The translations under genes were made by a program, and so were the position numbers. A DNA stretch of 64,000 nt from an uncultured Chitinophagaceae bacterium (GTDB taxonomy: Bacteria > Bacteroidota > Ignavibacteria > UBA10030 > UBA8401). Shown in pieces: positions 23,150-47,291 of this stretch; the first letter of the stretch is position 1; each line of letters begins with the position of its first letter. Under the pieces are notes generated by a model, which ran no database searches, had not been told where the DNA came from, and worked only from the letters and a program-made list of their open reading frames with translations. The stretch is taken from the NCBI GenBank assembly GCA_964371615.1, contig CAYJMS010000001.1, forward strand, positions 688,436 to 752,435, in the 5' to 3' direction.

Positions 23150-23989
23150 ATGCGTCATTCGATGAGAATAGTCATAATCCTGTGTTTCATGGTATATCCT
23201 CCGTTCCTTCATTCTCAGGATGCAGCAACGGGACTGCAGTCGTTTCATCTTACTGCTGCCTCGGCAAAACAGGTGATGTTGGATAAACGATTAAAGGAAA
23301 TCTCCGGCTTGGCGGTGCACCCCGACGGCAGACTATTCGCCCATCATGATGAATATGGCGACATCTTTGAATTGGACATGAAGAACGGCCGAATCCTCAA
23401 GAGATTTACAATCGGAATTGCGGATGACTTCGAAGGATTGGCAATCGTCGGGAAGGTGTTTTATCTCGTGACAAACAGCGGTGTTGTGTACGAGTTTCCG
23501 GAAGGGCAGAACAATGAAAAAGTTCTTTCTGTTTCATATACAACTTCGTTGGATGAAAATTATGACGTGGAGGGATTGTGTTACGATCCCACAACTGCAT
23601 CCCTGCTGCTGGCATGTAAAGGCTATTCCGGACTTAAGAATACGGGATATAAAGGGATCTTCGCCTTTTCGTTGGAGTCGAAATCGTTGGATCGGGAACC
23701 GAGATTTCTGATCCCAATTAACGAATTGAAACGTCGTTTCGGAGGGAAACCTTTTCGACCCTCCGGCATAGAATATAACCATGATTCACGTACGTTTTTT
23801 GTGGTGGATTCCGAGATCCGATCTGTCATCGAAATATCACCCACAGGCGATATTGTTGCTGCGGTGTTGCTCGACCGTTCTCTTCATAAACAACCGGAGG
23901 CGATTGCATTCGATTCGCACGGTGATTTGTTGATTGGCGATGAAGGGAGCAAAAAAGGGACATTAACTCGATACAAGCGAAAACGATGA
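23150..23989 (+). CDS. Secreted beta-propeller protein, YjiK/SdiA-regulated-like (tentative)
   Basis: Signal peptide MRHSMRIVIILCFMV. Repeats such as EISGLAVHPDGRLFAHHDEYGDIFELD. Divergent from the ATP-grasp gene. Confidence 0.4.
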   Translation: MRHSMRIVIILCFMVYPPFLHSQDAATGLQSFHLTAASAKQVMLDKRLKEISGLAVHPDGRLFAHHDEYGDIFELDMKNGRILKRFTIGIADDFEGLAIVGKVFYLVTNSGVVYEFPEGQNNEKVLSVSYTTSLDENYDVEGLCYDPTTASLLLACKGYSGLKNTGYKGIFAFSLESKSLDREPRFLIPINELKRRFGGKPFRPSGIEYNHDSRTFFVVDSEIRSVIEISPTGDIVAAVLLDRSLHKQPEAIAFDSHGDLLIGDEGSKKGTLTRYKRKR

Positions 23990-25131
23990 AAAAAATATTT
24001 ATTATAATCGCCGTTTTTCTTGGCGGTTGCAGTATTCATTCGGTGTACGTGAAAGATGGAACCGCACAATTTATTCCTGCCGCTCCACAGGATTCCGTTA
24101 TACACACTCTTTTCCTGATCGGAGATGCAGGCGAACCATTACCGGACGGGCAGGAAAAGGTTCTGAATGTTTTGGCCAATGATGCTTCACGCGATCCAGG
24201 CAGAAGTACCATTATATTTCTAGGTGACAATATTTACCCCGCCGGATTGCCCGACGAAGGCCATGATGACCGAAAAGAGATGGAACGGCATTTGGACGCA
24301 CAGATCGATGTCGCACGAAAGAGCGGCGCCCGCACTATTTTCATTCCGGGGAATCATGACTGGAATAAACAACGGAAAGACGGACTTGCCGCAATCCTGC
24401 GCCAGCAGAAATACCTCGCGGATGCAGGTTCGGAATCCATTCAGATGCTCCCATCCGGCGGCCTGCCCGGCCCGTCGTTTATCGATCTACGAGACGGCAT
24501 ACGGATAATTTTTCTCGATACGCAATGGTGGTTGCATGAGTTTGAAAAACCGATTTATTCCGGTGCCCGCACCGTTGAGCAGACGAAAGCGCTTTTTCTG
24601 GATTCACTATCGTCGCTACTTAAAACCGGCCGCATGACCATTGTTGCAGCGCATCATCCGTTGGAATCTCACGGAGAACATGGCGGATTTTTTGATTGGC
24701 GGGATCATCTCTTTCCAATGCGACATGTGGCGTCATGGTTGTGGCTCCCGCTGCCGGGAATCGGTTCGGCGTACCCGCTGTCGCGAATGTGGGGTATTAC
24801 ACAGCAGGACTTTTCCGGTTCACAGTACGATGAATTGCGCCGTCAATTGGATAGTACGCTTTCCCTGCATCCGCCGATGGCGTATGTGTCGGGCCACGAA
24901 CATACACTGCAGATCTTGGAGCCGCGGTCCGGCTATTATCACCTGATCAGCGGATACGGAATGTCGGGTCATCTTGCTTCACTGTCCACGGGGGAGAACA
25001 CGATTTTTGCCCGTCGTGCGCCCGGATTCATGAGAATGGATATTTACAGAAGCGGCGGCGTGATTGTTCGCGTGGTTGAAGCAGGCAACGATACGGATGG
25101 TACGGAAATCTTTTCAATCAGGATTCGGTGA
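23986..25131 (+). CDS. Calcineurin-like metallophosphoesterase lipoprotein
   Basis: Lipobox LGGCS. GDAGEP..FLGDNIYPAG..IPGNHDW..GHEH metallophosphatase motifs. ATGA overlap with the upstream gene. Confidence 0.8.
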   Translation: MKKIFIIIAVFLGGCSIHSVYVKDGTAQFIPAAPQDSVIHTLFLIGDAGEPLPDGQEKVLNVLANDASRDPGRSTIIFLGDNIYPAGLPDEGHDDRKEMERHLDAQIDVARKSGARTIFIPGNHDWNKQRKDGLAAILRQQKYLADAGSESIQMLPSGGLPGPSFIDLRDGIRIIFLDTQWWLHEFEKPIYSGARTVEQTKALFLDSLSSLLKTGRMTIVAAHHPLESHGEHGGFFDWRDHLFPMRHVASWLWLPLPGIGSAYPLSRMWGITQQDFSGSQYDELRRQLDSTLSLHPPMAYVSGHEHTLQILEPRSGYYHLISGYGMSGHLASLSTGENTIFARRAPGFMRMDIYRSGGVIVRVVEAGNDTDGTEIFSIRIR

Positions 25132-27228
25132 GTTTTTCATTTGCAGATAATGATAGATCTCGACCTGGGATTCGACCGGCTTGTTTACTTCCGATCGTTT
25201 ATATGTATTCTTTAGATTTTTGTCGATCATCCTCGCTTTCACGGTATCCATTAACTGGATCGATATCATTTCCTTGATTTCTCTTTTTAATCCTGCATCA
25301 AATACCGGAATAGCAACTTCAATCCGGCGATTGAGATTTCTCCTCATCCAATCGGCGGAAGAAATATAGATGAGATCATTGCCGCCGTTATGAAAGAAAT
25401 AGATCCGGTCATGCTCCAGAAAACGGCCGACAATGCTCATTGCGGTGATGTTTTTGCTAAAGGTCTTTTCGCCGGCGATAATACAACAGATTCCGCGTAT
25501 CAACAGCGTCACAGTGACACCTGCACTGCTTGCTTCGTACAGCGCATCGATCAATTCACGGTCCTCTATACTGTTTGCCTTCAGAAAAATTGAACCGATT
25601 TTTCCTTTTCGTGCCTGATCTCTCTCATACCGGATCATTTCCAGAAGACGTTCACGCAGCGAGTACGGTGCTACAAGCAGATGGCTCGTTTTTATGGAAC
25701 GGGTTTTATGATTGAGGAATTTAAAAACTTCGAACATCTCTTTGGTGATACGGATATCCGATGTAAAAAGCCCATGGTCGGTATAGACCTGCGCAGTCTT
25801 TTCGTTGAAATTTCCCGTACTGAGGTAGCCGTAGCGGCGTTTTACGGTCCCTTCCGTTCTGGTAATAAGACAAAGTTTCGCATGAACTTTGAGTTTCGGC
25901 AGTCCGTACAACACTTTGGCTCCGGCATTCTTCAATTCTTCCGCCCAGAAGATGTTCGATTCTTCGTCGAATCTCGCCATCAACTCAACATAGACCACAA
26001 CTTCTATTTTATTTGCGGCTGCCGCAATCAACGCCGCAACGACTCGAGACGATGCAGCAACACGATACAGTGTGATCCTGATCTGGCTGACATTCGGATC
26101 GAGGGAAGCTTCCTCCAAAAGACGAATGACCGGTTCGTAGGAATGATACGGGTAATGCAGCATCCAATCTTTTTCCCGGATGGCAGTGAACAGCGAAGGG
26201 AATTCCAACATCGCCGTATGGTCCAATGGGGGGAGCGGATCGTATTCAGGCAGGCGCTTTTCGGGATTCGGGAAGGAAAAGAAATCGCTGAAGTTGTGAT
26301 ATTGGGCTCCGGGAATCATCTCTTTGTCCGTCAACTTCAGCGAACGCTTAAGTATCGACTGAAGCTCCGCCGGCATGGTCGCATCAAAAAGGAATCGGGA
26401 CGGCGCACCGGTTTTTCTTGTCTTGACCGCTTTTTTGATCACTTCCACGGTATCGCCCGTAAACTCATCCTCGAAATACAGTTCCGCGTCGCGCGTCAGT
26501 TTAATGCAATACGCAGTACCGATCGCGTATTGAGGGAAGATATACGGAAGATAGATACGAACAATATCATCGAGAAACATAACCTGGATTTTCTCGCCGG
26601 CGGAAGGCAAGGTGATGAATCGTGGTACCACTGCGGTCGGCAATTCGACGATGGCATGTTCACGCGGTGCGGCAGGGTCATCCTTTCTCTTCAACTGCAC
26701 TGCCAAATACAATTGTTTGTTCTGCAGAAACAGTTCGGTTCTCGGCTTCGAGACTTCATAGGTTTTAACGTGGGGAAGAATCTGCTCTTTAAAGAAATCG
26801 TTGAGAAACGGCTCATGGTCACTTTTCACCTCTTTTTCAGAGATCAAAAATACCTTATGGTCGCGCATTTCTTTGAGTAAAACATTCCGGAACGTTTCAC
26901 CGTACTCCTCCTGCTGCTTTTTCACAATCCGATTGATTTCGTCGAGCAGCGAAACCGGATCGATATCGTATTTTTTTTTGGTCTTTTTCTTGATTCGTTG
27001 CAGGCTCTTCAGTGATGCCACCCGCACGCGGAAAAATTCGTCAAGATTCGACGAATAGATTGCCAGGAACTTTAATCGCTCATACAACGGATTCCGGGTA
27101 TCCCGCGCTTCCTGCAACACCCGGTGGTTGAACGCCAGCCAGCTGACATCCCGGTTATGGTACTGCCGATCCTTAATGATAAGGGATTCCGCGAAGAACG
27201 TGAATATATCGAACTGACGCAGGTTCAT
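25114..27228 (-). CDS. ppk: Polyphosphate kinase 1
   Basis: 704 aa. N-terminal YHNRDVSWLAFNHRVLQEA and the two PLD-like C-terminal domains are present. Confidence 0.93.
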   Translation of the reverse strand: MNLRQFDIFTFFAESLIIKDRQYHNRDVSWLAFNHRVLQEARDTRNPLYERLKFLAIYSSNLDEFFRVRVASLKSLQRIKKKTKKKYDIDPVSLLDEINRIVKKQQEEYGETFRNVLLKEMRDHKVFLISEKEVKSDHEPFLNDFFKEQILPHVKTYEVSKPRTELFLQNKQLYLAVQLKRKDDPAAPREHAIVELPTAVVPRFITLPSAGEKIQVMFLDDIVRIYLPYIFPQYAIGTAYCIKLTRDAELYFEDEFTGDTVEVIKKAVKTRKTGAPSRFLFDATMPAELQSILKRSLKLTDKEMIPGAQYHNFSDFFSFPNPEKRLPEYDPLPPLDHTAMLEFPSLFTAIREKDWMLHYPYHSYEPVIRLLEEASLDPNVSQIRITLYRVAASSRVVAALIAAAANKIEVVVYVELMARFDEESNIFWAEELKNAGAKVLYGLPKLKVHAKLCLITRTEGTVKRRYGYLSTGNFNEKTAQVYTDHGLFTSDIRITKEMFEVFKFLNHKTRSIKTSHLLVAPYSLRERLLEMIRYERDQARKGKIGSIFLKANSIEDRELIDALYEASSAGVTVTLLIRGICCIIAGEKTFSKNITAMSIVGRFLEHDRIYFFHNGGNDLIYISSADWMRRNLNRRIEVAIPVFDAGLKREIKEMISIQLMDTVKARMIDKNLKNTYKRSEVNKPVESQVEIYHYLQMKNSPNPD

Positions 27229-27296
27229 AATTTACGAGGGAGAATATGGGACCGCCATGCCAAAAAATGGAATAGAATGCCGCGGTGGTAAGCGCG

Positions 27297-28517
27297 TTAC
27301 AAATAAAAGCCGTACAGAACAAAAGCCGCGAGATATGCAACGACCGAAGCGACCATACCGTACAGAAAAATATTGTAACTTATCCGAAGATAGCGATACT
27401 TTTTTCCTAGTACCTGCCCCAGATAGTAGATGTCTTTGGTTAAGGCGCCGTAGAGCAAATCCTTATCCTTCATCATTTCATTTATACCCCAATGGAAGTC
27501 GCCGTACTTCATACCGAAAAAATTACCGAAAAAAAGCAGATTGATCTTTTTCTCCGCAATCTCCTCACGCGAATACCGGCCGGACGTTATTTTCGGTCTG
27601 GTGGAAAGAATGGCAAAGACAATCGTTGCCACACAGGTTACCAGCAACAGAAACGTCGGGATTAACAGTTCGGGATTCTCGTTCAGTTTGCGCAGCAACA
27701 CTGTCATGACAATGGAGATAATGATCGAAGGGACACTGATCATAATGTTTGCCTTGTTGTCGGCGATGGAGCTTAACTCCATGTGATTCTGCGAAGCGAT
27801 ACGGAACATTGTTTCTATGCCGCGTCCCGGACGCTTTTCCTTCATCATTGTTTTTTCCGTCTTGTGCTCCTGATCGGTGCGGCGAGATTCCAGTTTGCGC
27901 AGCCGCTTTTCGAGTTTGCTCAGGTTTTGATCGCGCCGGTCGCTGTATTCCCTGATTGCATATGTCGTGTGATAGGAATGGTCTTTAAAGAAACCGATGC
28001 TCTGCCGGAGCCATTGTTCTTCGGACATTCGCCGGTCGGTCATCTTTTCCACTTCCAATCGCAGTAACTCACCCTTCTTCAGACTGTCCTTCTTTCCAAG
28101 ATGGAGCAGGTCCGCATCGCACATAATTTGTTCTAGCAAATTGTTTGGCGATTGCGGAAGTTTTGTTGCCCCAATGCATCCGATGACGGCGTCGATTTTC
28201 TCCTTCGGATACTTGGCGGAACGCAAAAACTCGGCGGCATTCAATGCACTCCGCTCCTCATGGTCTTTGGGTGATTCCAGGTATCCGGTGTCGTGAAACC
28301 ATGCCGCCAGGAGTATAATTTCTGTGTCGGTGCGCGAGAGATCCATATTCTCTGCGATTTCCGTCGCGTTGCGGACCACTTCTTCGGTATGATCGAAATT
28401 ATGATAGAGACCCGGGAATGACTTGTGTTGTTGAAAAAGTGACCGGACGTGTGTTTGTGCTTTGCGTAAAATTTCGGTGCGTAGAGTCATTGAGCGTTCC
28501 TTGAAAATTGTGAACAA
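27297..28517 (-). CDS. HD-domain phosphohydrolase fused to a C-terminal multi-pass membrane domain
   Basis: N-terminal H..HD..H..D metal-binding motifs (YHNFDH, WFHDTGY). C-terminal approx 170 aa with three or four predicted TM helices and an SSIADNKANIMISV motif. Confidence 0.7.
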   Translation of the reverse strand: MFTIFKERSMTLRTEILRKAQTHVRSLFQQHKSFPGLYHNFDHTEEVVRNATEIAENMDLSRTDTEIILLAAWFHDTGYLESPKDHEERSALNAAEFLRSAKYPKEKIDAVIGCIGATKLPQSPNNLLEQIMCDADLLHLGKKDSLKKGELLRLEVEKMTDRRMSEEQWLRQSIGFFKDHSYHTTYAIREYSDRRDQNLSKLEKRLRKLESRRTDQEHKTEKTMMKEKRPGRGIETMFRIASQNHMELSSIADNKANIMISVPSIIISIVMTVLLRKLNENPELLIPTFLLLVTCVATIVFAILSTRPKITSGRYSREEIAEKKINLLFFGNFFGMKYGDFHWGINEMMKDKDLLYGALTKDIYYLGQVLGKKYRYLRISYNIFLYGMVASVVAYLAAFVLYGFYL

Positions 28518-28694: not shown

Positions 28695-29519
28695 ATGGAC
28701 GTCCGTCTGCAGAAATTGGCACGCACACATTACGAAAATTTTCCCGTCGGGTCTCGATTCATTCCCGCACGGTATCGTGAGGCGGTCCATCTGGTGTACG
28801 CATTCGCCCGTGTTGCTGATGATATTGCCGATGAAGGAACGATGGACCGAAGCGAACGGGTTCAAAAACTCAGTGATTGGGAATTATTGTTGGTGGATAG
28901 TCTCAACGGAACCGTTGCAGACGAATTCTTCTCCGGCCTCGCGTCGGTGATTCGCCGGTATCGGATTCCGGTACAGTATTTCAAGGATTTGATCAGCGCA
29001 TTCAATCAGGATACCGGCAATCCGGAATATCAAACATTCGATGAGATCATCGGTTATTGCAGCCGTTCGGCAAATCCTATCGGCAGAATCATGTTGAAGA
29101 TTTTCAATTCTTCGAATTCTCGAAATGATCTCCTGTCGGATCACATTTGCACCGCACTGCAATTGACGAATTTTCTGCAGGATATTTCTATTGATACACG
29201 TCGGAATCGTTTCTATATTCCCGCGAAGGAATTGACGGAATATGGCCTCAGCCGCCAGGATCTGGCGGGACAGAACAAAAAGGAGGCGATGGTGCGACTG
29301 ATGAAATCGCAGGTCGAACGGACCCGTCAGATCTTCGGTCAGGGAAAAGAATTATTCTTCTTGGTCCACAACGATCTCCGTTTCGAATTGAAGCTGATCT
29401 GGCACGGCGGCATGAGAATTTTGGAAAAAATCGAAGCACTGGGATATGATACTCGGCATGTCCGGCCGTCATTGACGGTATTTGACTCCTTGCTCATTGT
29501 GTGGAGGGCGATGCGATAA
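28695..29519 (+). CDS. hpnC: Hydroxysqualene synthase (squalene/phytoene synthase family)
   Basis: HYENFPVGSRFIPARYREAVHLVYAFARVADDIADEG, the HpnC-type N-terminus with the first Asp-rich motif. Confidence 0.8.
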   Translation: MDVRLQKLARTHYENFPVGSRFIPARYREAVHLVYAFARVADDIADEGTMDRSERVQKLSDWELLLVDSLNGTVADEFFSGLASVIRRYRIPVQYFKDLISAFNQDTGNPEYQTFDEIIGYCSRSANPIGRIMLKIFNSSNSRNDLLSDHICTALQLTNFLQDISIDTRRNRFYIPAKELTEYGLSRQDLAGQNKKEAMVRLMKSQVERTRQIFGQGKELFFLVHNDLRFELKLIWHGGMRILEKIEALGYDTRHVRPSLTVFDSLLIVWRAMR

Positions 29520-29521
29520 CT

Positions 29522-30364
29522 ATGGAACATTTGTTGACGACATATGTGCTGGAACAGAACAAGAGGAGTAATTTCTATTATTCCTTTTTGCTGCTTCCAA
29601 AACCAAAGCGAGAAGCGATCAACATCGTGTACGCCTGGTGCCGCATTGCGGACGATATCGTCGATGAAGAAGAAAGCATTCCGGTCAAACGCCAGCGGCT
29701 CCTGTCGTGGGCAAAGGAGTTCGAAAAAGGGATAGAAGGCGAATCGGAGTATGCTCTAGTCAACCGCCTTTCGCGCATCATAGCACATTTCAAAATTCCG
29801 CTGACCCATTTTCACGATCTCATTGCCGGCATGGAAATGGACCTCATCAATTTCCGCTACGCGACGTTCGAGGATCTGAAACTGTACTGTTATCGCGTTG
29901 CGTCCACTGTCGGTTTGATCAGCACCGAGATTTTCGGATACCGGAACGACGGCGCCAAGGAATACGCCGTTAATCTCGGTTTCGCTTTGCAGTTGACGAA
30001 CATCCTCCGGGATGTGGCCGCCGATGCAAAGAAAGGAAGAATCTATCTTCCGCAGGAAGATCTTGTCGCATTCAGTTATACCGAAGAGGAACTCTTTTCC
30101 GGTGTCTATAACGACAAATTCCGAAAACTCATGAAGTTCGAAGCCGACCGGGCCAGAATGTATTTTACCGAAGCACTCAAACATCTTTCCGAAGAGGATA
30201 AACCGCTGTTCATTGCTGCGTTGATTATGCAGGAGATCTATTTCCGGCTGCTGCAGGATATTGAACGTGCAGACTATAATGTTTATGCGCACCGTTTCCG
30301 AGTCTCGAACTTCACAAAAATCCTCATCACATCCCGTGTCTGGTGGAACAATCGTAAGCGATAA
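29522..30364 (+). CDS. hpnD: Presqualene diphosphate synthase (squalene/phytoene synthase family)
   Basis: SNFYYSFLLLPKPKREAINIVYAWCRIADDIVDEEES, HpnD-type. Start placed at MEHLL, 2 nt after the hpnC stop. Confidence 0.8.
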   Translation: MEHLLTTYVLEQNKRSNFYYSFLLLPKPKREAINIVYAWCRIADDIVDEEESIPVKRQRLLSWAKEFEKGIEGESEYALVNRLSRIIAHFKIPLTHFHDLIAGMEMDLINFRYATFEDLKLYCYRVASTVGLISTEIFGYRNDGAKEYAVNLGFALQLTNILRDVAADAKKGRIYLPQEDLVAFSYTEEELFSGVYNDKFRKLMKFEADRARMYFTEALKHLSEEDKPLFIAALIMQEIYFRLLQDIERADYNVYAHRFRVSNFTKILITSRVWWNNRKR

Positions 30365-31721
30365 CGCTCCGGATGCGGTGATTATCGGCGGAGGTATGGC
30401 GGGATTGTCCGCCGCCGTCGATCTGGTTCGCCGCGGCCATTCTGTTGTACTCGTTGAACAAAAGCAGCATCTTGGCGGAAGAACCTATTCCTTCGTCCAT
30501 CCGGAAACAGGTGACGATGTCGATAATGGCCAGCATCTGATGATGGGGTGTTATCATTCGACGCTCCGGTATCTGCGAACGATCGGCACGATTGATGAGG
30601 TCGAGATCCAGAAACGCCTTACCATTCTTTTTCGCCGTAAAGGAAAGCAGACAGGGATATTGCACTCCGGCCGCCTTCCGGCACCGTTTCATATCCTTTC
30701 CGGATTATTGCGGCTCACCATTCTTCGCTGGACCCACCGGATTCGTTTGCTGAGAGTCGGCATTGAATTGCTCATCAGAAATCCCGATACGGACCGTCAT
30801 CTTCATTCCATCACCGTCGAACAATGGCTGGATGAAATGAAACAGCCGCCGGAAAATAAAGAATACCTCTGGAACATTATCGCCATTGGTGCGTTGAACG
30901 ACTCGCCAGCGGATATTTCCGCAGCGATGTTTGTCAAAGTGCTCAAGAGTGCATTTTTTGGAGCGCGGCAGAATTCATCAATGGTGATTCCAAAGCGCGG
31001 TTTGAGTTCGGTCTTGATCGATGGCGCCGAATCGTATATCCGTCTGCGGGGGGGCAGGATAGTGTTGAATTCGTCGGTTAAAAATATCGAGATTAATAGC
31101 AACGCCGTGGAATCGGTTACGTTGGAAAACGGCGAAGTATTAATCCCCGCGACGGTAATCTCCGCGGTGCCGTATTTCGACTTTCCCCGGCTTTTTTCCG
31201 ATGCAGCATTGTCCGTGGCAGGAAATATCGGCGCGTTTGTATCGTCGCCGATTATTACAATTCACCTTTGGTTTGATGCACATTTTGTTGAGGAAAAATT
31301 CTCCGCTCTTATCGGTTCACGCATCCATTGGGTGTTCAACAAAACCGCAATTTACGGCAGAAAAAGAGAAGGCTTGATGTATCTCTCCCTGGTGGTCAGC
31401 GGTGCACGCGATCTCATCGGAAAAAGTAAAGAAAACCTTGTGACGATAGCGCATGAAGAATTGAAACAGTTCTATCCCGCCGCATCATTGGCTGCAATCG
31501 TTCATTCCCTGGTCATGAAAGAAAAACGCGCGACCTTCTCGCCGAGCATAGAAATCGAACCGCAACGTCCCGCTGCCCGAACGGCGGTGAACAATCTCTT
31601 TATCGCAGGGGATTGGACAGATACAAAACTCCCCGCCACCATCGAAGGGGCAGTGCAAAGCGGATACGAAAGTGCCGCATTGGCCGCAATGGAAATTGAA
31701 TTGAGGAAAAATCCGAAGTAA
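30335..31721 (+). CDS. hpnE: Hydroxysqualene dehydroxylase (FAD-dependent amine-oxidase family)
   Basis: Rossmann VIIGGGMAGLSAAVDL..VLVEQKQHLGGR. Overlaps the hpnD 3' end; exact start uncertain (GTG near 30335). Confidence 0.75.
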
Positions 31722-31799: not shown

Positions 31800-33467
31800 T
31801 CATTCGACAGCTGCGGGGAACATCATTCTGATCGTTGTCCCTTTGCCGAGTTCGCTGTCGATCTCGATTTTCCCTTTGTGATCGTCAATCACTTTTTTAA
31901 CAATGGACATGCCGAGACCGGTTCCGTGTTTCTTTCCATAGGTCACAAACGGCTCAAAGATTCTCCGTTTTACCTCTTCCGGCATACCGGTGCCGGTATC
32001 GGTAAATTCGATCTTCACCATTCCGCCGATATCCTCGGTTGAGACGGAGAGCGATCCGCCGTTCGGCATGGCATCGCGTGCGTTGCTGGCGATATTATAG
32101 AATACCCGGACCATTTTATCCTGGTCGAGTTTTACTGTTCCCTTGAAATTAAGGTGCTTTTCTAATTTGACGTTGTTCTTGGTGAGGTCTTTTTCGATGA
32201 ACATCAGAACTCCCTCCATAACATCCTCGAACACCACATTTTCCATGTTCGTTGCGCTCACACCCCGGCTGAAGTCGAGAATTTCCTGCGCCATATTGAC
32301 AAATCGGTCGACCTGATGGATCATCTCGTCCGCCATTTTTGCCGCCTCTTCGTTCCCCGATTTCTTCTTCATTACCTGAGCATACACCCGCAGCGTTCCC
32401 ATCGGATTCTTGATGTCATGGATGATTGTGCTGGCCATGCGTCCGACGGCGGATAGTCGTTCGTTGTTCACCATCTCTTGGGCCATCCGGGCATTTTCGA
32501 TGGCAATGGAAGCGTGAATGGAAAGGGCGTTCAGGAACTCCTCGTCCTGCGGAGTAAACGGTCCCCCTTTTTTGTTTAACATTTGAAAGACGCCGATAAT
32601 CTTGCCGTCGCGATTGCGCATCGGCATGGTGAGCATATTATTCGTGCGGTAACCGGTCTTTTTGTCCACTTCGGGATTAAAGCGGGGATCGTTGTAAGCA
32701 TCGGGTATGTTCACGATCTCGCCCGTCTTTGCCACATAGCCGGCTAGTCCTTTGCCGAGCGGCAGCCGTATCTCAATCACTTCTGTGCCGCGTAGGGCTT
32801 TCGACCAGATCTCACCTTTTAATTCATCAACCAGATATAATGTACCGCGATCCGAGGCGATTGATTTAATCGCCGTTTCTAGAATTACATCGAGCAATTT
32901 ATCGAGATCGAGTGTCGAATTGACAGTCTTTGCAGCATCGATCAGGGTGTTTAACTTATTTATGTGCTGCTTCGATATCTCCACCGTCCGGTCCAGCTCC
33001 TGTACGATCGTCTGATCGGCAGCGCGTAACCGCTTCGTAACATTCCGCAATATGTTCAATTGGATGATGTTGTTCGATTTCAAGAGATTATCAAAATCCT
33101 GTTTGCTGATGCTGGCGCACACCGTGTTCTCCACGGCCATCGTCCGAGCAGACCGCACCTGATCGTCCAACAGCTCCATCTCTCCGAAAAAATCTCCCTT
33201 GGTAAGATGGGCAAGAACTGTTTCCGCTCCATACTTTGTCACTTTAGAGATCTTGATCTTGCCATCGAGGATAAGATACAATCGCTCTCCGCGGGTATTT
33301 TCCTGGAAAACGACGGTATTGGCGGCAAATCTCTCTTCTCGACACATCTTGAGAATTGCGTTCAAATTCACATCGGCCACATATTTAAACGCCGACGCGG
33401 ATTTGAGATTTTCGAGAGTGAGGAGTGATTGTTCCATTGGCTCTTTTCGAGTTGTGATTGGTTTCAA
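31800..33467 (-). CDS. Soluble sensor histidine kinase: cNMP-binding (CAP-type) domain, GAF domain, HisKA and HATPase_c
   Basis: FGEMELL...RSARTMAVE cNMP-binding signature. GAF region. H-box HDIKNP. G1/G2 boxes DTGTGM and GTGLGM. No TM segments. Confidence 0.85.
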   Translation of the reverse strand: MKPITTRKEPMEQSLLTLENLKSASAFKYVADVNLNAILKMCREERFAANTVVFQENTRGERLYLILDGKIKISKVTKYGAETVLAHLTKGDFFGEMELLDDQVRSARTMAVENTVCASISKQDFDNLLKSNNIIQLNILRNVTKRLRAADQTIVQELDRTVEISKQHINKLNTLIDAAKTVNSTLDLDKLLDVILETAIKSIASDRGTLYLVDELKGEIWSKALRGTEVIEIRLPLGKGLAGYVAKTGEIVNIPDAYNDPRFNPEVDKKTGYRTNNMLTMPMRNRDGKIIGVFQMLNKKGGPFTPQDEEFLNALSIHASIAIENARMAQEMVNNERLSAVGRMASTIIHDIKNPMGTLRVYAQVMKKKSGNEEAAKMADEMIHQVDRFVNMAQEILDFSRGVSATNMENVVFEDVMEGVLMFIEKDLTKNNVKLEKHLNFKGTVKLDQDKMVRVFYNIASNARDAMPNGGSLSVSTEDIGGMVKIEFTDTGTGMPEEVKRRIFEPFVTYGKKHGTGLGMSIVKKVIDDHKGKIEIDSELGKGTTIRMMFPAAVE

Positions 33468-36371: not shown

Positions 36372-38975
36372 TTAGAACGTAAATCCAGTCGTCACGTACC
36401 CTTCAACCTGTTCTCGAGACCGTGCGACGGAAAGAGCAACAGTCAGATTTTTGTCCACTGCATACGTCCAGAGGCCCGCTCCGAATCCGGAGTGCCAGAG
36501 CAACGAACGTTCGCCCCGTACAAATACCCGTCCGGTTTCCGCAAAGAGAGTTCCGCCGAGATGAAACGGCAGAAGTACCCTGATCGTCGCAATTTTAAAT
36601 CGCGATTCGGCATGGAGTGAAATGCTGGCATCGCCGGAGAAGCGTTGCTTTTCAAATCCGCGGACAGACTCCGTACCGCCCAGGAATGAACCTTCGAAAA
36701 ACGGATATGTGCCGGAGATATTTTCCGCAAACAGACGGAACGCCAGCGTTGTCGTCGAAAAGAGCGATGTCGTAACATAGGTACGCATATCGAGATATGA
36801 TCGTGTGAATTCTGACCTGCTGCTCAACACTTTCGGGAAATGATAGAGGCCGGATCGGATGAATGAACCCGCCGTCGGAAAAACAGAATGATCGCGCGTA
36901 TCCCATTCCGCTTCACCCTGCAGACTCATGATCGTCATATTTTCAGTACCGTAGGGGAGAAGCGTAGTGATGAACGTTGAATCTTCGAGGAGAATATCAC
37001 TATGCTTGAGCAGGATTCCGCCGATAATCGATAATCGGTCCGTAAAACCGTATTTCACCTGCGGATGAAGAATGTATTGCCCCTGCTTTACTTTATAATA
37101 TTCTTCATCATCGGGGGAATGTGGCAGCGAGAATGAATTCCCTTTTCCAAAGAAGCGTAAGACCTCGATGCCGGATAATCGGATATCGAGAATGTAGTGA
37201 AGGTGTCGATTGTATGTCCTAAAGAGGCCGCGATAATCAATCCGGAATGCTTCGTGATTTGTTGCATAGGCAGCGCTCAGATCCATTCGATAAAAATACG
37301 GATCGTATTTGAAACCATACGCGAACACTGTTTGACCTCCGCCAAGAATGATTCCGTCGGCGGAATTATATGCTGCTACTGCCAGAGGACGAAAATCAAA
37401 TCCGAAATCCCTGTACGGTTCGACCATTGCCGTATCCGACTCAAACAGCGGGAATGTGTGGTCGATAATCGTGGTGGATGATTGTCCTCGTACTACCGTC
37501 TTTTTACCGGTATCATAGACGAATGTCTGTGCGGCGGGAACAATTCCGGGAATATAATCCAGCACGCCGCCGCGCACAACGGATTCATCGACAATGACAT
37601 CTTTCCCTTCGCCGCCGTCCACGTGTATGTCGATGCTGGAAGCGACATTACCGGAAAGATGAGCGATGTCGTCTCCATCCTTTAGATATATCCGGATTTC
37701 GTTTGTTTCTTCCGCAGAGAATCTGCGGCGGTAAATCGGATCGTCCATCGGTTTCCCGGTCGTCTTATCACGCTTCCAAACGGTGATGTCAACACTCCGG
37801 TCGTCATTCCGGACCGCTTCGACATATTCATTTTTGTTGCTGCAATGGATATCGACATACCGTGCGGACAATTCGTAAAATTTCATGGAGATTTCGTGTA
37901 AACGGTCGCGTCGTTCCCGAAGGATATTTTCGATGGCAGGTCCCTCCAGCGCAAGATGTTCCTGCGGCATGAGTCGGACAGCGGAAGCGATCAGTGAATC
38001 GGTAAGCCGGTCAACAAGCCATGACGTAACATTCTTCCATTCTTCTCTATTCAAGCCGGAAAGGAATCTGCGGTCCAGATGTCGCCCGGACCAGGTAAGA
38101 TCGTCGATCAACGGAAAGATATTGTCATAACTTTCTATCTGCTTGACGGAGAGAACGATCAGCCACGGAATTAATCCGTCGATCTTCGCCAATGCCTGAT
38201 CGCGGTCTCGCGGAATCGGCCTCCAAATTCGTTTTCCTTCTTTTTTATATCCCGCCCATTTCCATTGATCGATATGCCGGTCCCAATCGCCGATAAAAAT
38301 GTCGACCAGCCGTGCGGTAAGAAATTCCTTCTCATCGACAACTTCGTCATTATCGTCATTCAGTTCACGAATGAGGGAATACGATCCTTTGATTTTATCC
38401 GCCCCTGCAAAAACGACGGATCCTTTGTCGTCCGGATTTTCTTCGAAAGTGCCGAGCAAGCCGCCAAAATCTTTTTGGAATTCTCCCAGTGCCGGAGAAT
38501 CCGGTAGTACTACCATGCGGGGTGTCGCCTGCAGAATTCCCGCAGCATCAACAATCGGCGCTGCAATGACGGCGGAGAAGGGATGGGTCCAGCTGATCTG
38601 ATCTTGGACGAGATCCTTGACGAAAGTATCCAATAATTCCTCAGGGAGCAATCTGCCGGGATCTTTGTCCAGCGAACGGAATTTATATTCCTTCCCGTCA
38701 CGACCGATGAATTGCAGCGATCTCGTCTGAAATCCCCCGCCGCGTTTTGTCGGTATCAATCCACCGGCGGTTTTGTCGAGATCCAGTACGGGGACAGTGA
38801 CCGGAATAGCCCAGAGATCCCTCCAATGATCGCCGAACAGGAACCGCTTGATCGGTCCGGCTTGATAATGGTTTCCCGGTACAACGGTAACGGAATCCGA
38901 AGAAACGATTTGTCCCTGCGAAACAACAGTGACGGCAACTATCAGAACAAAAAATATCGATTTGGTGTTTATCAT
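36372..38975 (-). CDS. Omp85-family outer-membrane beta-barrel protein with a large N-terminal domain that does not resemble POTRA repeats
   Basis: 867 aa with signal peptide. C-terminal barrel has the Omp85 signature FLGGTESVRGF and ends in F. The N-terminal approx 500 aa includes GDWDRHIDQW. Confidence 0.7.
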   Translation of the reverse strand: MINTKSIFFVLIVAVTVVSQGQIVSSDSVTVVPGNHYQAGPIKRFLFGDHWRDLWAIPVTVPVLDLDKTAGGLIPTKRGGGFQTRSLQFIGRDGKEYKFRSLDKDPGRLLPEELLDTFVKDLVQDQISWTHPFSAVIAAPIVDAAGILQATPRMVVLPDSPALGEFQKDFGGLLGTFEENPDDKGSVVFAGADKIKGSYSLIRELNDDNDEVVDEKEFLTARLVDIFIGDWDRHIDQWKWAGYKKEGKRIWRPIPRDRDQALAKIDGLIPWLIVLSVKQIESYDNIFPLIDDLTWSGRHLDRRFLSGLNREEWKNVTSWLVDRLTDSLIASAVRLMPQEHLALEGPAIENILRERRDRLHEISMKFYELSARYVDIHCSNKNEYVEAVRNDDRSVDITVWKRDKTTGKPMDDPIYRRRFSAEETNEIRIYLKDGDDIAHLSGNVASSIDIHVDGGEGKDVIVDESVVRGGVLDYIPGIVPAAQTFVYDTGKKTVVRGQSSTTIIDHTFPLFESDTAMVEPYRDFGFDFRPLAVAAYNSADGIILGGGQTVFAYGFKYDPYFYRMDLSAAYATNHEAFRIDYRGLFRTYNRHLHYILDIRLSGIEVLRFFGKGNSFSLPHSPDDEEYYKVKQGQYILHPQVKYGFTDRLSIIGGILLKHSDILLEDSTFITTLLPYGTENMTIMSLQGEAEWDTRDHSVFPTAGSFIRSGLYHFPKVLSSRSEFTRSYLDMRTYVTTSLFSTTTLAFRLFAENISGTYPFFEGSFLGGTESVRGFEKQRFSGDASISLHAESRFKIATIRVLLPFHLGGTLFAETGRVFVRGERSLLWHSGFGAGLWTYAVDKNLTVALSVARSREQVEGYVTTGFTF

Positions 38976-45083: not shown

Positions 45084-47291
45084 TTATTTCGTCTTCATCT
45101 CAAACACGCCGCTCCAATCTTCAGGCGGTGGATTTTTCATATACTTTTCAGCGCGGCTAAAATACAACTGAGACGGTCCGTCGTCATGGACGATCTCCAT
45201 TGCATCGTAAAATGAATGCATCGCTTCCGAAAACCGCCGTTCACGATAGAGTTTTAATCCGGTATTGTATAAATCGATCATACGATGCTTGTCCGGATCG
45301 ATCTCTTCGGATCGTTCGGCAATGAGTTCGAAAACGCGGATTGGTTTTGATTTTCCTTTGACGATCAATAAATCCAATTCGCGACACAGCAGTTGATCCT
45401 TGACGAGGTCATACGCCCGCTCGCTGATCAGAATGTGCGTGCCGTATGTCTTGTTCGCTCCTTCCAACCGTGACCCGAGATTCACCGCATCGCCGATGAC
45501 CGTATAATCGAACCGGCCGGCGCCGCCGACATTGCCCACTACCATTTCATCGGTGTTCAATCCCATACGTACTACCAAATTTGGCTTTCCCTCCTTATTC
45601 CACCGATCGGCGATCTCCTGGGTTTTCCTTTGCATCTGCAGCGCAGCCCGGCACGCATTCAATGCGCTGTTTTCCAACGGTATCGGCGCACCCCAGATTG
45701 CCATCACCGCATCGCCGACATATTTGTCGAGCATGCCGTCGTGTTTCAGTATGATGTCCGTCATGGCACTCAGGTATTCGTTTAACAGGTGGACCAGTTC
45801 CACCGCATCAAGTTTCTCCGAAAAATTCGTGAACGACGCGATATCCGAAAAGAAAACGGTCAATTCTTTTTTTTCACCGCCGAGTCGGAGTTTTTCAGGA
45901 TGTGCAATCAGTTCGTTCACTACCGACGGATTGAGATACTGGCTGAACATCCCTTTGATCATTGTTTTCTGCTTGCGTTCGGTCAGATATTGGTATACAG
46001 CACTGCCGAAATAGTTGAGGACTACCGCTGCAATGGGTGAGACGACCGGAAACAGGATAGAATGGGCGGAAAACATGTAGTAGAAAAATTGAAGTATCCC
46101 GACGATAAGCAGCGCGGAGAATGTTAGCGCACCGATTTCAGCAAGAAATGCGTTTCGGGTCCGGATCTGCTTCAGCATCGTCACGACGAAGAATGTTATG
46201 CCTGAGAGAAACACAATATACAGCAGTACAATAAAATCTGAGACATTGTGGATATATTTCTGATCGATGAGCATTTGCAGAACATTGGCATGCAATTCTA
46301 CGCCGTACATCTGGTTCCGGTTACTCAATCCCTCTTCGGAGACGGAGACATTGAAAAGATCCTTTGATTCTGAGAAATAAGGTCCGATCAGTACGATCTT
46401 ATCTTTGAACAACTCGTCATGGAGCAATCCGTAATCCGGGTCATCGAATGCATTGATCGATGTATGGAGTTCACGTTCTTCATTCGTTTCGAACTCATCG
46501 TCATCGAGAATATTGACGATGTCAAGTTCTTTAAACGTTTTCCCGGCAGACCCATAATAATTTATGAGAAGAGAAATATCGTCGTATTTTGGGATTATTC
46601 TCTCCCCGACAATAAAAAATCCTTTCCGATCCTCCGCCGGCGTTTTCGCCTTGATTCCGGCGGTAATATTCAGCAGCGCAAATGAGAATGTCGGCAGGAA
46701 TATATCACGATCGGGCATTTTGGTGAATGGCATGTAACGGCGAAATACACCGTCGATGTCGTTCGGCACGAAGACGCTTCCGACGGCGCTGTCTGCCGGA
46801 TAAAATATCGAATGGAAATTCTCGTCTTCTCGATATACTGTCGCGTCGGACCTGCTTAGGTCAGTTTTTCCTGCGACCACAACATTCCGGTATTGTTGAA
46901 TGGCAGCGTACAATTCGTCGTCGTGGTGAGGGCCGCGTGTGTCGGGTTGTTCGAACGTCAAGTCGATGCCGATCGCTTTTACACCGGCGCGGTTCAGATT
47001 GTGCACTGCTCGGGCATAATAACTACGCGGGAAAGGAAACCGTTCGGGAACCGTCGATTCTGATTTGTCGGAAATCGATACGATAATAACATCGAGGGAA
47101 TCTGCTGATATCCCAACCGGGCCTCGATCTGCAAAAGCACGGTCAATAAACGAAAGCCGGAACCTGTCAAAGAAATCGAATTCGTACAGTTCATCACGAA
47201 CGAAAATTATCACAACGAGGGAAATGGAGAGACATAACGCAGCACGATTGATCCATGTGCGGAAAGACGATGCCGAAGATGTACTGTCCAT
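45084..47291 (-). CDS. CHASE2 sensor domain class III adenylate cyclase
   Basis: N-terminal periplasmic CHASE2 region flanked by TM helices. Cyclase core FFSDIASFT, LDKYVGDAVMAIWG and GDAVNLGSRLE with the metal-binding Asps, the Lys and the Asn-Arg pair. C-terminal TPR-like tail. Confidence 0.85.
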   Translation of the reverse strand: MDSTSSASSFRTWINRAALCLSISLVVIIFVRDELYEFDFFDRFRLSFIDRAFADRGPVGISADSLDVIIVSISDKSESTVPERFPFPRSYYARAVHNLNRAGVKAIGIDLTFEQPDTRGPHHDDELYAAIQQYRNVVVAGKTDLSRSDATVYREDENFHSIFYPADSAVGSVFVPNDIDGVFRRYMPFTKMPDRDIFLPTFSFALLNITAGIKAKTPAEDRKGFFIVGERIIPKYDDISLLINYYGSAGKTFKELDIVNILDDDEFETNEERELHTSINAFDDPDYGLLHDELFKDKIVLIGPYFSESKDLFNVSVSEEGLSNRNQMYGVELHANVLQMLIDQKYIHNVSDFIVLLYIVFLSGITFFVVTMLKQIRTRNAFLAEIGALTFSALLIVGILQFFYYMFSAHSILFPVVSPIAAVVLNYFGSAVYQYLTERKQKTMIKGMFSQYLNPSVVNELIAHPEKLRLGGEKKELTVFFSDIASFTNFSEKLDAVELVHLLNEYLSAMTDIILKHDGMLDKYVGDAVMAIWGAPIPLENSALNACRAALQMQRKTQEIADRWNKEGKPNLVVRMGLNTDEMVVGNVGGAGRFDYTVIGDAVNLGSRLEGANKTYGTHILISERAYDLVKDQLLCRELDLLIVKGKSKPIRVFELIAERSEEIDPDKHRMIDLYNTGLKLYRERRFSEAMHSFYDAMEIVHDDGPSQLYFSRAEKYMKNPPPEDWSGVFEMKTK

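Follow-up and report, generated by a model that had tools for sequence, protein, structure and literature searches.

The window analyzed here is a 64,000-nucleotide stretch of contig CAYJMS010000001.1 (positions 688,436 to 752,435, forward strand) from an uncultured Chitinophagaceae bacterium that GTDB places in the Ignavibacteria, and the gene of interest encodes a protein, termed HD-PycTM below, in which an N-terminal HD phosphohydrolase domain is joined by a helical linker to a C-terminal membrane domain of the PycTM type, directly upstream of the gene for polyphosphate kinase 1 (ppk1). Its open reading frame (ORF) runs from a TTG at 27297..28517 (-) and would encode 406 aa, as given in an earlier description made from the DNA letters alone (the sequence-only reading); the frame stood but its start codon did not, the most likely coding sequence (CDS) being 27297..28490 (-), which begins at an ATG at 28490 and encodes 397 aa plus stop. 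This CDS is preferred because a database protein with 100% identity to the window protein (P0001) is 397 aa long, as are all close homologues, whose N-termini align at M10 of the 406-aa frame ('MTLRTEIL'), because AAGGAA stands 6 nt 5' of the ATG, and because the TTG at 28517 falls inside TACCTTTG, an element that we take to resemble the Bacteroidota -7 promoter box. The TTG was therefore rejected in favour of the ATG 27 nt further in. The ppk1 gene (25114..27228, (-), 704 aa, all four PPK1 domains by Pfam) follows directly downstream on the same strand after a spacer of 68 nt (27229..27296, (-)), measured from the stop codon of HD-PycTM to the start codon of ppk1, so both the co-directional neighbour and the gap proposed earlier are borne out. 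Since no terminator-like hairpin or site was found in this gap, the two genes are likely co-transcribed. Neither tRNA genes nor Rfam families at gathering threshold were found in the whole 64-kb window.

Architecture and conservation of HD-PycTM

Residues 1-180 (27951..28490, (-)) form a predicted cytoplasmic HD phosphohydrolase domain (PF01966; 34.5 bits against a cut-off of 22, E 2.8e-8). Across an alignment of 57 homologues that are 45-75% identical to the window protein, H30, H34, H66-D67, H77-E78 and D125 do not vary, and D127 is conserved in at least 90%; when the protein is aligned to 2pq7 and YedJ, the metal ligands H30, H66-D67 and D125 coincide with their HD motifs. Because the metal-site residues are invariant among these homologues, the site is under selection and is probably catalytic, and the canonical N-terminal HD phosphohydrolase claimed by the sequence-only reading is upheld. 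Profile searches of the PDB returned the HD hydrolases 2pq7, Escherichia coli YedJ and BH2835, solved by structural genomics (E 1e-6 to 2e-5), and the AlphaFold2 (AF2) model of residues 11-200 is an all-alpha HD fold (predicted local distance difference test, pLDDT, mostly >90, with one 10-residue block at 81) for which Foldseek gave 2pq7 (TMt 0.73) and Bacillus subtilis YpgQ (TMt 0.70), a mononuclear Mn-dependent (d)NTP pyrophosphohydrolase (PMC8177086). YpgQ, YedJ, 2pq7 and BH2835 share the all-helical HD fold and the H...HD...D metal site with our protein (Foldseek TMt 0.62-0.73), but they are soluble, ~190-240 aa long and <25% identical to it, whereas the HD domain of HD-PycTM is joined by a coiled linker to a membrane domain. 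Lower in the fold list stand cyclic-nucleotide phosphodiesterases (PDE5, PDE10) and the HD-like domain III of Ppx/GppA (8jgx, 6pbz, 3rf0); Pfam found no Ppx-GppA domain in the protein, the likeness to Ppx/GppA being one of distant fold only. According to the alignment and the AF2 model, the linker (residues 181-220; 27831..27950, (-)) is a K/E-rich helix, the length of which ranges from 30 to 74 aa among the homologues, with no column reaching 90% conservation.

The C-terminal part, residues 221-397 (27297..27830, (-)), is a PycTM domain of the pJV1-SpdB3 type with three transmembrane (TM) helices (PF18967; E 5.3e-34, 117 bits against a cut-off of 27.2, profile positions 2-107 of 107). The PADLOC PycTM models also match it (E 4.6e-14 to 3.6e-12, model positions 16-152 of 160), as do four PADLOC models for the CBASS 'Effector 2TM' near their full length (E 8e-12 to 2e-4), these matches covering the last ~150 residues of the protein, and the resemblance to Pycsar TM domains that the earlier reader had offered is thus confirmed. 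Hydropathy and the AF2 model (pLDDT 86.5) agree on a layout of a cytosolic pre-TM1 helix, TM1 (residues 248-266; 27693..27749, (-)), an outer loop of 9 residues, TM2 (residues 276-294; 27609..27665, (-)), a cytosolic and mostly helical insert of ~75 residues, and TM3 (residues 374-392; 27315..27371, (-)). Where three or four helices had been allowed for, three are found; the fourth was rejected, as hydropathy gives only three hydrophobic spans. The stretch SSIADNKANIMISV at residues 240-253 of the 397-aa protein holds the hallmark of the whole family, an A-D-N-K-A motif at the cytosolic entry of TM1 (residues 243-247; 27750..27764, (-)), and every relative compared, whether HD-fused, stand-alone in bacteria or encoded by phages, has A-D-x-K-A.

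Conservation is stronger in the PycTM part than in the HD part, both in the mean frequency of the majority residue (0.71 vs 0.57) and in the number of columns conserved at 90% or more (49/172 vs 36/180). Most of these 49 PycTM columns (41) lie in the pre-TM1 helix (RGIETMFR..NH..LS.MADxKAN) and in the TM2-TM3 insert (TRPK, NLLFFGNF, WG and KD.Y.LG.VLG.KY), and only 7 in the TM helices themselves. HD-less bacterial relatives of 205-213 aa and phage-encoded relatives share the conserved motifs. Given that conservation in the PycTM part exceeds that in the enzyme, and that the PycTM motifs are kept in relatives that lack the HD domain, a mere anchor is unlikely, and the conserved cytosolic elements argue for a ligand-binding or gating surface. 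The effector family homologous to the PycTM domain has been described as 'pJV1-SpdB3 three-TM proteins', and cryo-electron microscopy of its E. coli member EcPucTM showed three TM helices per protomer and a hexameric cylinder in which TM2 lines a channel of ~15 A (bioRxiv 10.64898/2026.08.12.744502); by analogy, TM2 would be the pore-lining helix of HD-PycTM. Like the Pycsar PycTM and Pucsar PucTM effectors, our protein has a homologous C-terminal domain, here 177 aa, with three TM helices, the second and third of which are separated by a helical cytosolic region, and its ADxKA-type motif falls within the stretch that the PADLOC PycTM models cover. This homology to genuine effectors is drawn from the PADLOC models, since a tblastn search of plasmids with the C-terminal domain returned only three copies on Bacteroidota megaplasmids, all of the same family, and a search of representative sequences gave nothing beyond HD-fused and very close stand-alone forms, so that neither yielded a bona fide Pycsar PycTM sequence.

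Distribution and the phosphate and polyphosphate neighbourhood

More than 6993 protein clusters at 90% identity match HD-PycTM, the top 120 all being HD+PycTM proteins of ~400 aa, and the C-terminal domain alone matched 1789 clusters at 50% identity (417 of them at E <=1e-30). When one genome per species was scanned, at least 575 species genomes were found to encode a relative; the best 80 of these species loci served as our synteny sample, with counts from clustering of flanking ORFs taken over 79 loci and within five genes. All 80 encode the HD+PycTM architecture, and all belong to the Bacteroidota, Ignavibacteriota or Calditrichota. A neighbour-joining tree of the proteins groups the Flavobacteriaceae, Ignavibacteria, Saprospiraceae/Lewinellaceae, Cytophagales, Bacteroidales and Sphingobacteriales by taxonomy, and because the tree recovers these taxonomic groups it indicates that HD-PycTM has descended mainly vertically, a pattern opposite to that typically shown by defence systems. 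NCBI names its members variously 'Pycsar system effector family protein', 'DUF5706' and 'HD domain-containing'.

In 32 of the 80 other species loci, a search with the PPK1 of the window (tblastn) found ppk1 at a distance of ~3 kb or less from the family gene, so the linkage that the sequence-only reading had marked for checking proved to be conserved. With the contig of the window included, 17 loci have ppk1 as the next gene downstream in the same orientation, and 25 have it in that orientation within three genes; assuming a single ppk1 in each genome, we estimate the chance of such adjacency at well under 1%. The flanking ORFs form a wider module, at least one of its genes lying within five genes in 60/79 loci, and independent metagenome contigs show the same linkage. 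Its most frequent member is an exported ~1200-aa fusion of a Metallophos domain with an Omp85-type barrel (48/79), followed by a secreted, YjiK-like 'SdiA-regulated' beta-propeller (34/79), PPK1 (31/79 by ORF clustering), a GAF-type sensor protein of ~790 aa (26/79), the phosphohistidine phosphatase SixA (11/79), a PAP2 phosphatase (8/79) and a membrane class III cyclase (8/79 by ORF clustering; 9/80 plus the further locus L083 by tblastn). The genes run in the order HD-PycTM, PPK1, YjiK, Metallophos-Omp85 and GAF protein in Sphingobacteriales and some Chitinophagales, and in the order HD-PycTM, SixA and PPK1 in Ignavibacteria and Calditrichia, while in Cytophagales YjiK and Metallophos-Omp85 are divergent; tandem, SixA-interposed, convergent and upstream forms of linkage were all seen. 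Because the layout varies by lineage while the module genes stay together, the association appears to have been kept through rearrangements.

In the window itself, the module is represented on the far side of ppk1 by a YjiK-like (SdiA-regulated, PF06977) secreted beta-propeller (23162..23989, (+)), which overlaps by 4 nt the start of an exported Metallophos lipoprotein (23986..25131, (+), 381 aa, LGGC lipobox) that is convergent with ppk1. The lipoprotein is homologous to the N-terminal third of the ~1200-aa fusion, and an Omp85-family outer-membrane protein of 867 aa (36372..38975, (-)) to residues 369-1171 of it, so what is a single fused gene elsewhere stands in this genome as two, ~11 kb apart; the arrangement recurs in a metagenomic relative with 64% identity. 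The intact fusion, present in most related genomes (e.g., L061:14164-17769), resembles in our reading a type Vd autotransporter with a phosphoesterase passenger. SixA (TIGR00249) belongs to the module in Ignavibacteria and Calditrichia (L010, L014, L025, L027, L032, L038, L048, L065, L069 and L083), usually directly between HD-PycTM and ppk1; an opposite-strand gene separates SixA from HD-PycTM in L027 and L032, and no ppk1 follows SixA within the stretch seen in L065 and L069. Since PPK1 acts via a phospho-histidine intermediate, SixA might regulate it. Divergent from the promoter region of HD-PycTM, two SQS_PSY genes and an amine-oxidase/FAD gene (28695..31721, (+)) form what looks to us like an hpnC/hpnD/hpnE squalene pathway, conserved only in close relatives.

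Genes for cyclic nucleotide monophosphate (cNMP) signalling are also present in the window. A sensor kinase with cNMP_binding, GAF, HisKA and HATPase domains (31800..33467, (-)) lies 3.3 kb upstream of HD-PycTM and is also present in the 64%-identical relative (L082), and the nearest cyclase, a class III enzyme with a CHASE2 domain (45084..47291, (-)), is 17 kb away; because the window encodes both, this genome uses cNMP signalling, but neither gene is a conserved neighbour of the HD-PycTM family. Among the related loci, a multi-TM class III cyclase was found at the edge of the module in L003, L008, L020, L026, L031, L048, L073, L078, L081 and L083, from Ignavibacteriota, Cytophagales and Bacteroidales (Guanylate_cyc confirmed by Pfam for the L008 and L083 proteins), which is far commoner than chance adjacency predicts. 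This layout differs from the two-gene operon of Pycsar, and the PycC models match these cyclases as they would any class III cyclase. The ~790-aa GAF neighbour (L079:6743-9118, (-); homologues P0272 and others) is annotated only as 'GAF domain-containing' and is absent from the window. No Pfam family matched it above threshold, and its output domain had no Pfam match even at E up to 10; the best fold match of its AF2 model is 6fht, a phytochrome-regulated adenylate/guanylate cyclase (E 9e-9). In the model, PAS/GAF-like sensors in tandem are combined with long helices and with a beta-alpha-beta-beta-alpha-beta domain at the C-terminus, in which the motifs KTDG.EH and RFDVDG are invariant. The protein may be an unrecognised nucleotide-signal enzyme. 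It never co-occurs in these loci with the membrane class III cyclase (P ~0.03, a statistic that ignores phylogeny).

Relation to defence systems and phage proteins

The gene belongs to the PycTM domain family but most probably not to a Pycsar system, because the defining partner cyclase is missing and the flanks are housekeeping. Within 10 kb on either side of HD-PycTM no cyclase (Guanylate_cyc) and no defence or mobile genes were found, the flanking genes being those for squalene/phytoene synthase-like proteins, an ABC-F protein, FBPase and ABC exporters, and an adjacent class III cyclase was not found in 71/80 related loci. Thus, of the features of a Pycsar system, the locus has the PycTM-domain effector and lacks both the adjacent cyclase and a defence-island or mobile context with patchy spread. 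Unlike the Pycsar and Pucsar effectors, which it otherwise resembles, HD-PycTM carries an N-terminal HD hydrolase, is widespread in the Bacteroidota group, is linked to ppk1 and phosphate genes, and comes with no partner cyclase, defence island or patchy spread. The same applies to the CBASS 2TM effectors, four models of which match the C-terminal domain near full length, whereas no CD-NTase or other CBASS gene lies near HD-PycTM and the context is housekeeping. The sequence-only reading had also offered a membrane-disrupting effector module, and this proposal is not supported, given the lack of an adjacent cyclase, the housekeeping flanks, an architecture shared by the 80 loci and the 120 top hits, the presence in at least 575 species and a tree that follows taxonomy.

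Viral contigs hold 156 relatives, and the 80 that were inspected all lack the HD domain. In IMG/VR (loci L089-L167, e.g., L103:1271-1945 and L105:2376-3491), contigs of T4-like myophages carry a stand-alone PycTM-like gene, the product of which is 195-240 aa long (PF18967, E 5e-22) and 27-40% identical to the C-terminal domain of the window protein. The gene follows that of a solute-binding protein with a signal peptide (SBP_bac_3) in 71/80 loci, usually together with two small TM proteins, and the cassette often sits between the genes for the small and large terminase; no cyclase was seen. The phage proteins thus share with HD-PycTM the three-TM domain, the motifs MADAKANIMI, NPLFFGHF and KY, the lack of an adjacent cyclase and a non-defence setting, and differ from it in the missing HD domain, the shorter length and the position between terminase genes beside a solute-binding protein and two small TM proteins. 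The pairing, in a phage, of a pore domain known from 'abortive infection' with a binding protein suggests that the phage gene has a role resembling transport or one in counter-defence.

Proposed function and rival explanations

The reading that we favour, and to which we give an even chance, is that HD-PycTM represents a housekeeping, vertically inherited branch of the PycTM family that is fused to a probably active HD hydrolase of the YpgQ/YedJ type, is co-transcribed with ppk1, belongs to a conserved phosphate/polyphosphate module of the Bacteroidota, Ignavibacteriota and Calditrichota and serves as a pore or regulator in polyphosphate (polyP) and phosphate homeostasis. The mechanism that we infer, from oligomeric pore formation through ligand binding and substrate to a physiological role in polyP and phosphate handling, would be as follows. 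The C-terminal domain would form an oligomer in the inner membrane that serves as a pore or regulator (a hexamer with a TM2-lined channel, if EcPucTM is a guide), and its strongly conserved surface on the cytosolic side (ADxKA in the pre-TM1 helix; NLLFFGNF, WG and KY in the TM2-TM3 insert) would bind a phosphate-rich ligand, which the HD domains, carried on flexible charged helices, would hydrolyse. Candidates for this ligand are a nucleotide-type phosphoanhydride or phosphodiester, or the end of a polyP chain; the membrane module would be set or reset by this cleavage, the net effect being to couple PPK1 or polyP status to membrane conductance or to a flux of phosphate or ions.

Several observations weigh against this interpretation. 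Oligomerisation is proposed only by analogy with the preprint structure of a distant homologue, and the TM helices are hydrophobic and hold no charged residues, giving no direct sign of a path for ions or polyanions in the monomer. The closest characterised HD enzyme, YpgQ, is <20% identical, and the substrate is not readable from the sequence. No module gene was found in 19/79 loci, and the Saprospiraceae/Lewinellaceae, which lack the phosphate module, have flanks of DUF2805, ferritin and DUF2007 instead (L016, L017, L024, L028, L042, L043, L060 and L071), so the link to ppk1 is not obligatory. TGTCA-N6-TGTCA repeats, a Pho box of the proteobacterial type, are no commoner 5' of 78 family genes than in shuffled sequence, and a literature search returned no paper on the HD-PycTM family or on its link to ppk.

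It is also conceivable, if rather unlikely in our view, that the protein is a tethered enzyme only, an exopolyphosphatase-like or nucleotide phosphohydrolase working with membrane-associated PPK1, the PycTM part of which anchors and perhaps oligomerises it and takes no part in pore formation or sensing. The other option of the sequence-only reading, a hydrolase held at the membrane and acting on (poly)phosphate or a nucleotide messenger, we still count as viable. In E. coli, ppx adjoins ppk in the ppk-ppx operon, and HD-PycTM fills the corresponding slot, being likewise a phosphohydrolase gene that is co-directional with and adjacent to ppk1 and is kept across many taxa; the partner here is, however, an HD-3TM protein upstream of ppk1 and not Ppx/GppA (ASKHA fold), and a polyphosphatase role is only putative. 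A tblastn search with an E. coli Ppx sequence, a weak test confined to the window and the fetched locus flanks, found no Ppx/GppA gene. The conserved active-site residues, the weak similarity of the HD fold to domain III of Ppx/GppA and the flexible linker of variable length, which suggests a tether over tight allosteric coupling, would all fit such an enzyme, but a plain anchor would hardly be so constrained as to exceed the enzyme in conservation, to concentrate its conserved columns on the cytosolic side (41 vs 7 in the TM helices) and to keep its motifs in HD-less bacterial and phage relatives. Less probable again is a self-limiting cNMP circuit, in which a 3',5'-cNMP would gate the PycTM domain, as happens in Pycsar and Pucsar, the HD domain would act as a phosphodiesterase off-switch, and the signal would come from the membrane class III cyclase or from the GAF-sensor protein with a putative cyclase-like output. 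The homologous effectors are cNMP-activated, PDE5 and PDE10 are among the Foldseek matches of the HD domain, the genome of the window has cNMP signalling genes, and the module is bordered by a membrane class III cyclase in 9/80 species loci plus L083, in two phyla, or by the GAF protein with its 6fht-like fold in 26/79, never by both. Most loci nevertheless lack an adjacent cyclase, there is none within 17 kb in the window, the HD domain is closer to the YpgQ/YedJ phosphatase type than to known PDEs, the cyclase-like nature of the GAF output domain, which has no Pfam match, is only putative, and the exclusion of GAF protein and cyclase was calculated without regard to phylogeny.

More doubtful still is a conduit for polyP or another polyanion, in which the three-TM pore would pass PPK1-made polyP across the inner membrane, the HD domain would handle the chain end, and the exported Metallophos-Omp85 and YjiK-like proteins would process or display the polymer. 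Such a transmembrane link would join cytoplasmic PPK1 to the extracytoplasmic phosphoesterase-type proteins that are the top neighbours (48/79 and 34/79), and the homologous EcPucTM hexamer has a channel of ~15 A. The family is named after SpdB3 of pJV1, a plasmid-spread protein linked to DNA translocation. The TM helices of HD-PycTM hold no basic residues, however, the co-location may merely reflect a shared phosphate regulon, and we know of no extracytoplasmic polyP in these phyla. The least likely explanation, and one that we consider very improbable, is a genuine abortive-infection effector of the Pycsar type, either an orphan or served by a distant cyclase, to which the HD domain adds a toxic nuclease or NTPase. 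The PF18967 and PADLOC PycTM/2TM matches and the automatic NCBI name would agree with this, but there is no adjacent cyclase, the flanks within 10 kb are housekeeping and free of defence or mobile genes, the linkage to ppk1 has been kept in three phyla, the protein tree agrees with taxonomy, and the viral contigs inspected hold only HD-less relatives.

The HD+PycTM architecture is already catalogued in Pfam and in NCBI names. Three features appear to be new: the gene stays linked to ppk1 and the phosphate module, it is passed on vertically, and its pore domain is under tighter constraint than its enzyme. We found no literature on DUF5706, nor any that joins polyphosphate kinase, 'HD domain' and Bacteroidetes; the PycTM papers that we consulted make no mention of an HD fusion, and the only paper found to name both Pycsar and polyphosphate is a review of archaeal nucleotide second messengers, which appears to be unrelated. 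The automatic label 'Pycsar system effector' on members of this family, which domain-based defence models match, is probably wrong, and recognition of a housekeeping branch would lead to fewer false defence calls in Bacteroidota genomes. HD-PycTM is also a very widespread candidate component of polyP metabolism in the Bacteroidota, Ignavibacteriota and Calditrichota, phyla that include polyP-accumulating bacteria of wastewater and soil. An immune pore domain thus appears to have a housekeeping relative, which would offer a non-lethal setting for studying how PycTM pores sense their ligands and open and would bear on the origin of nucleotide-activated suicide effectors. Going further, we raise as a speculative idea, with odds clearly against it, that the PycTM/pJV1-SpdB3 pore of Pycsar, Pucsar and CBASS-like immunity has an ancient physiological counterpart, a ligand-gated channel of the inner membrane with an HD off-switch that governs the polyP and phosphate economy; such a channel may respond to a nucleotide signal from the membrane cyclase or the GAF enzyme, or may conduct polyP towards the exported phosphoesterases. 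If this is true, the immune effectors would have been derived from, or have arisen in parallel to, a housekeeping channel.

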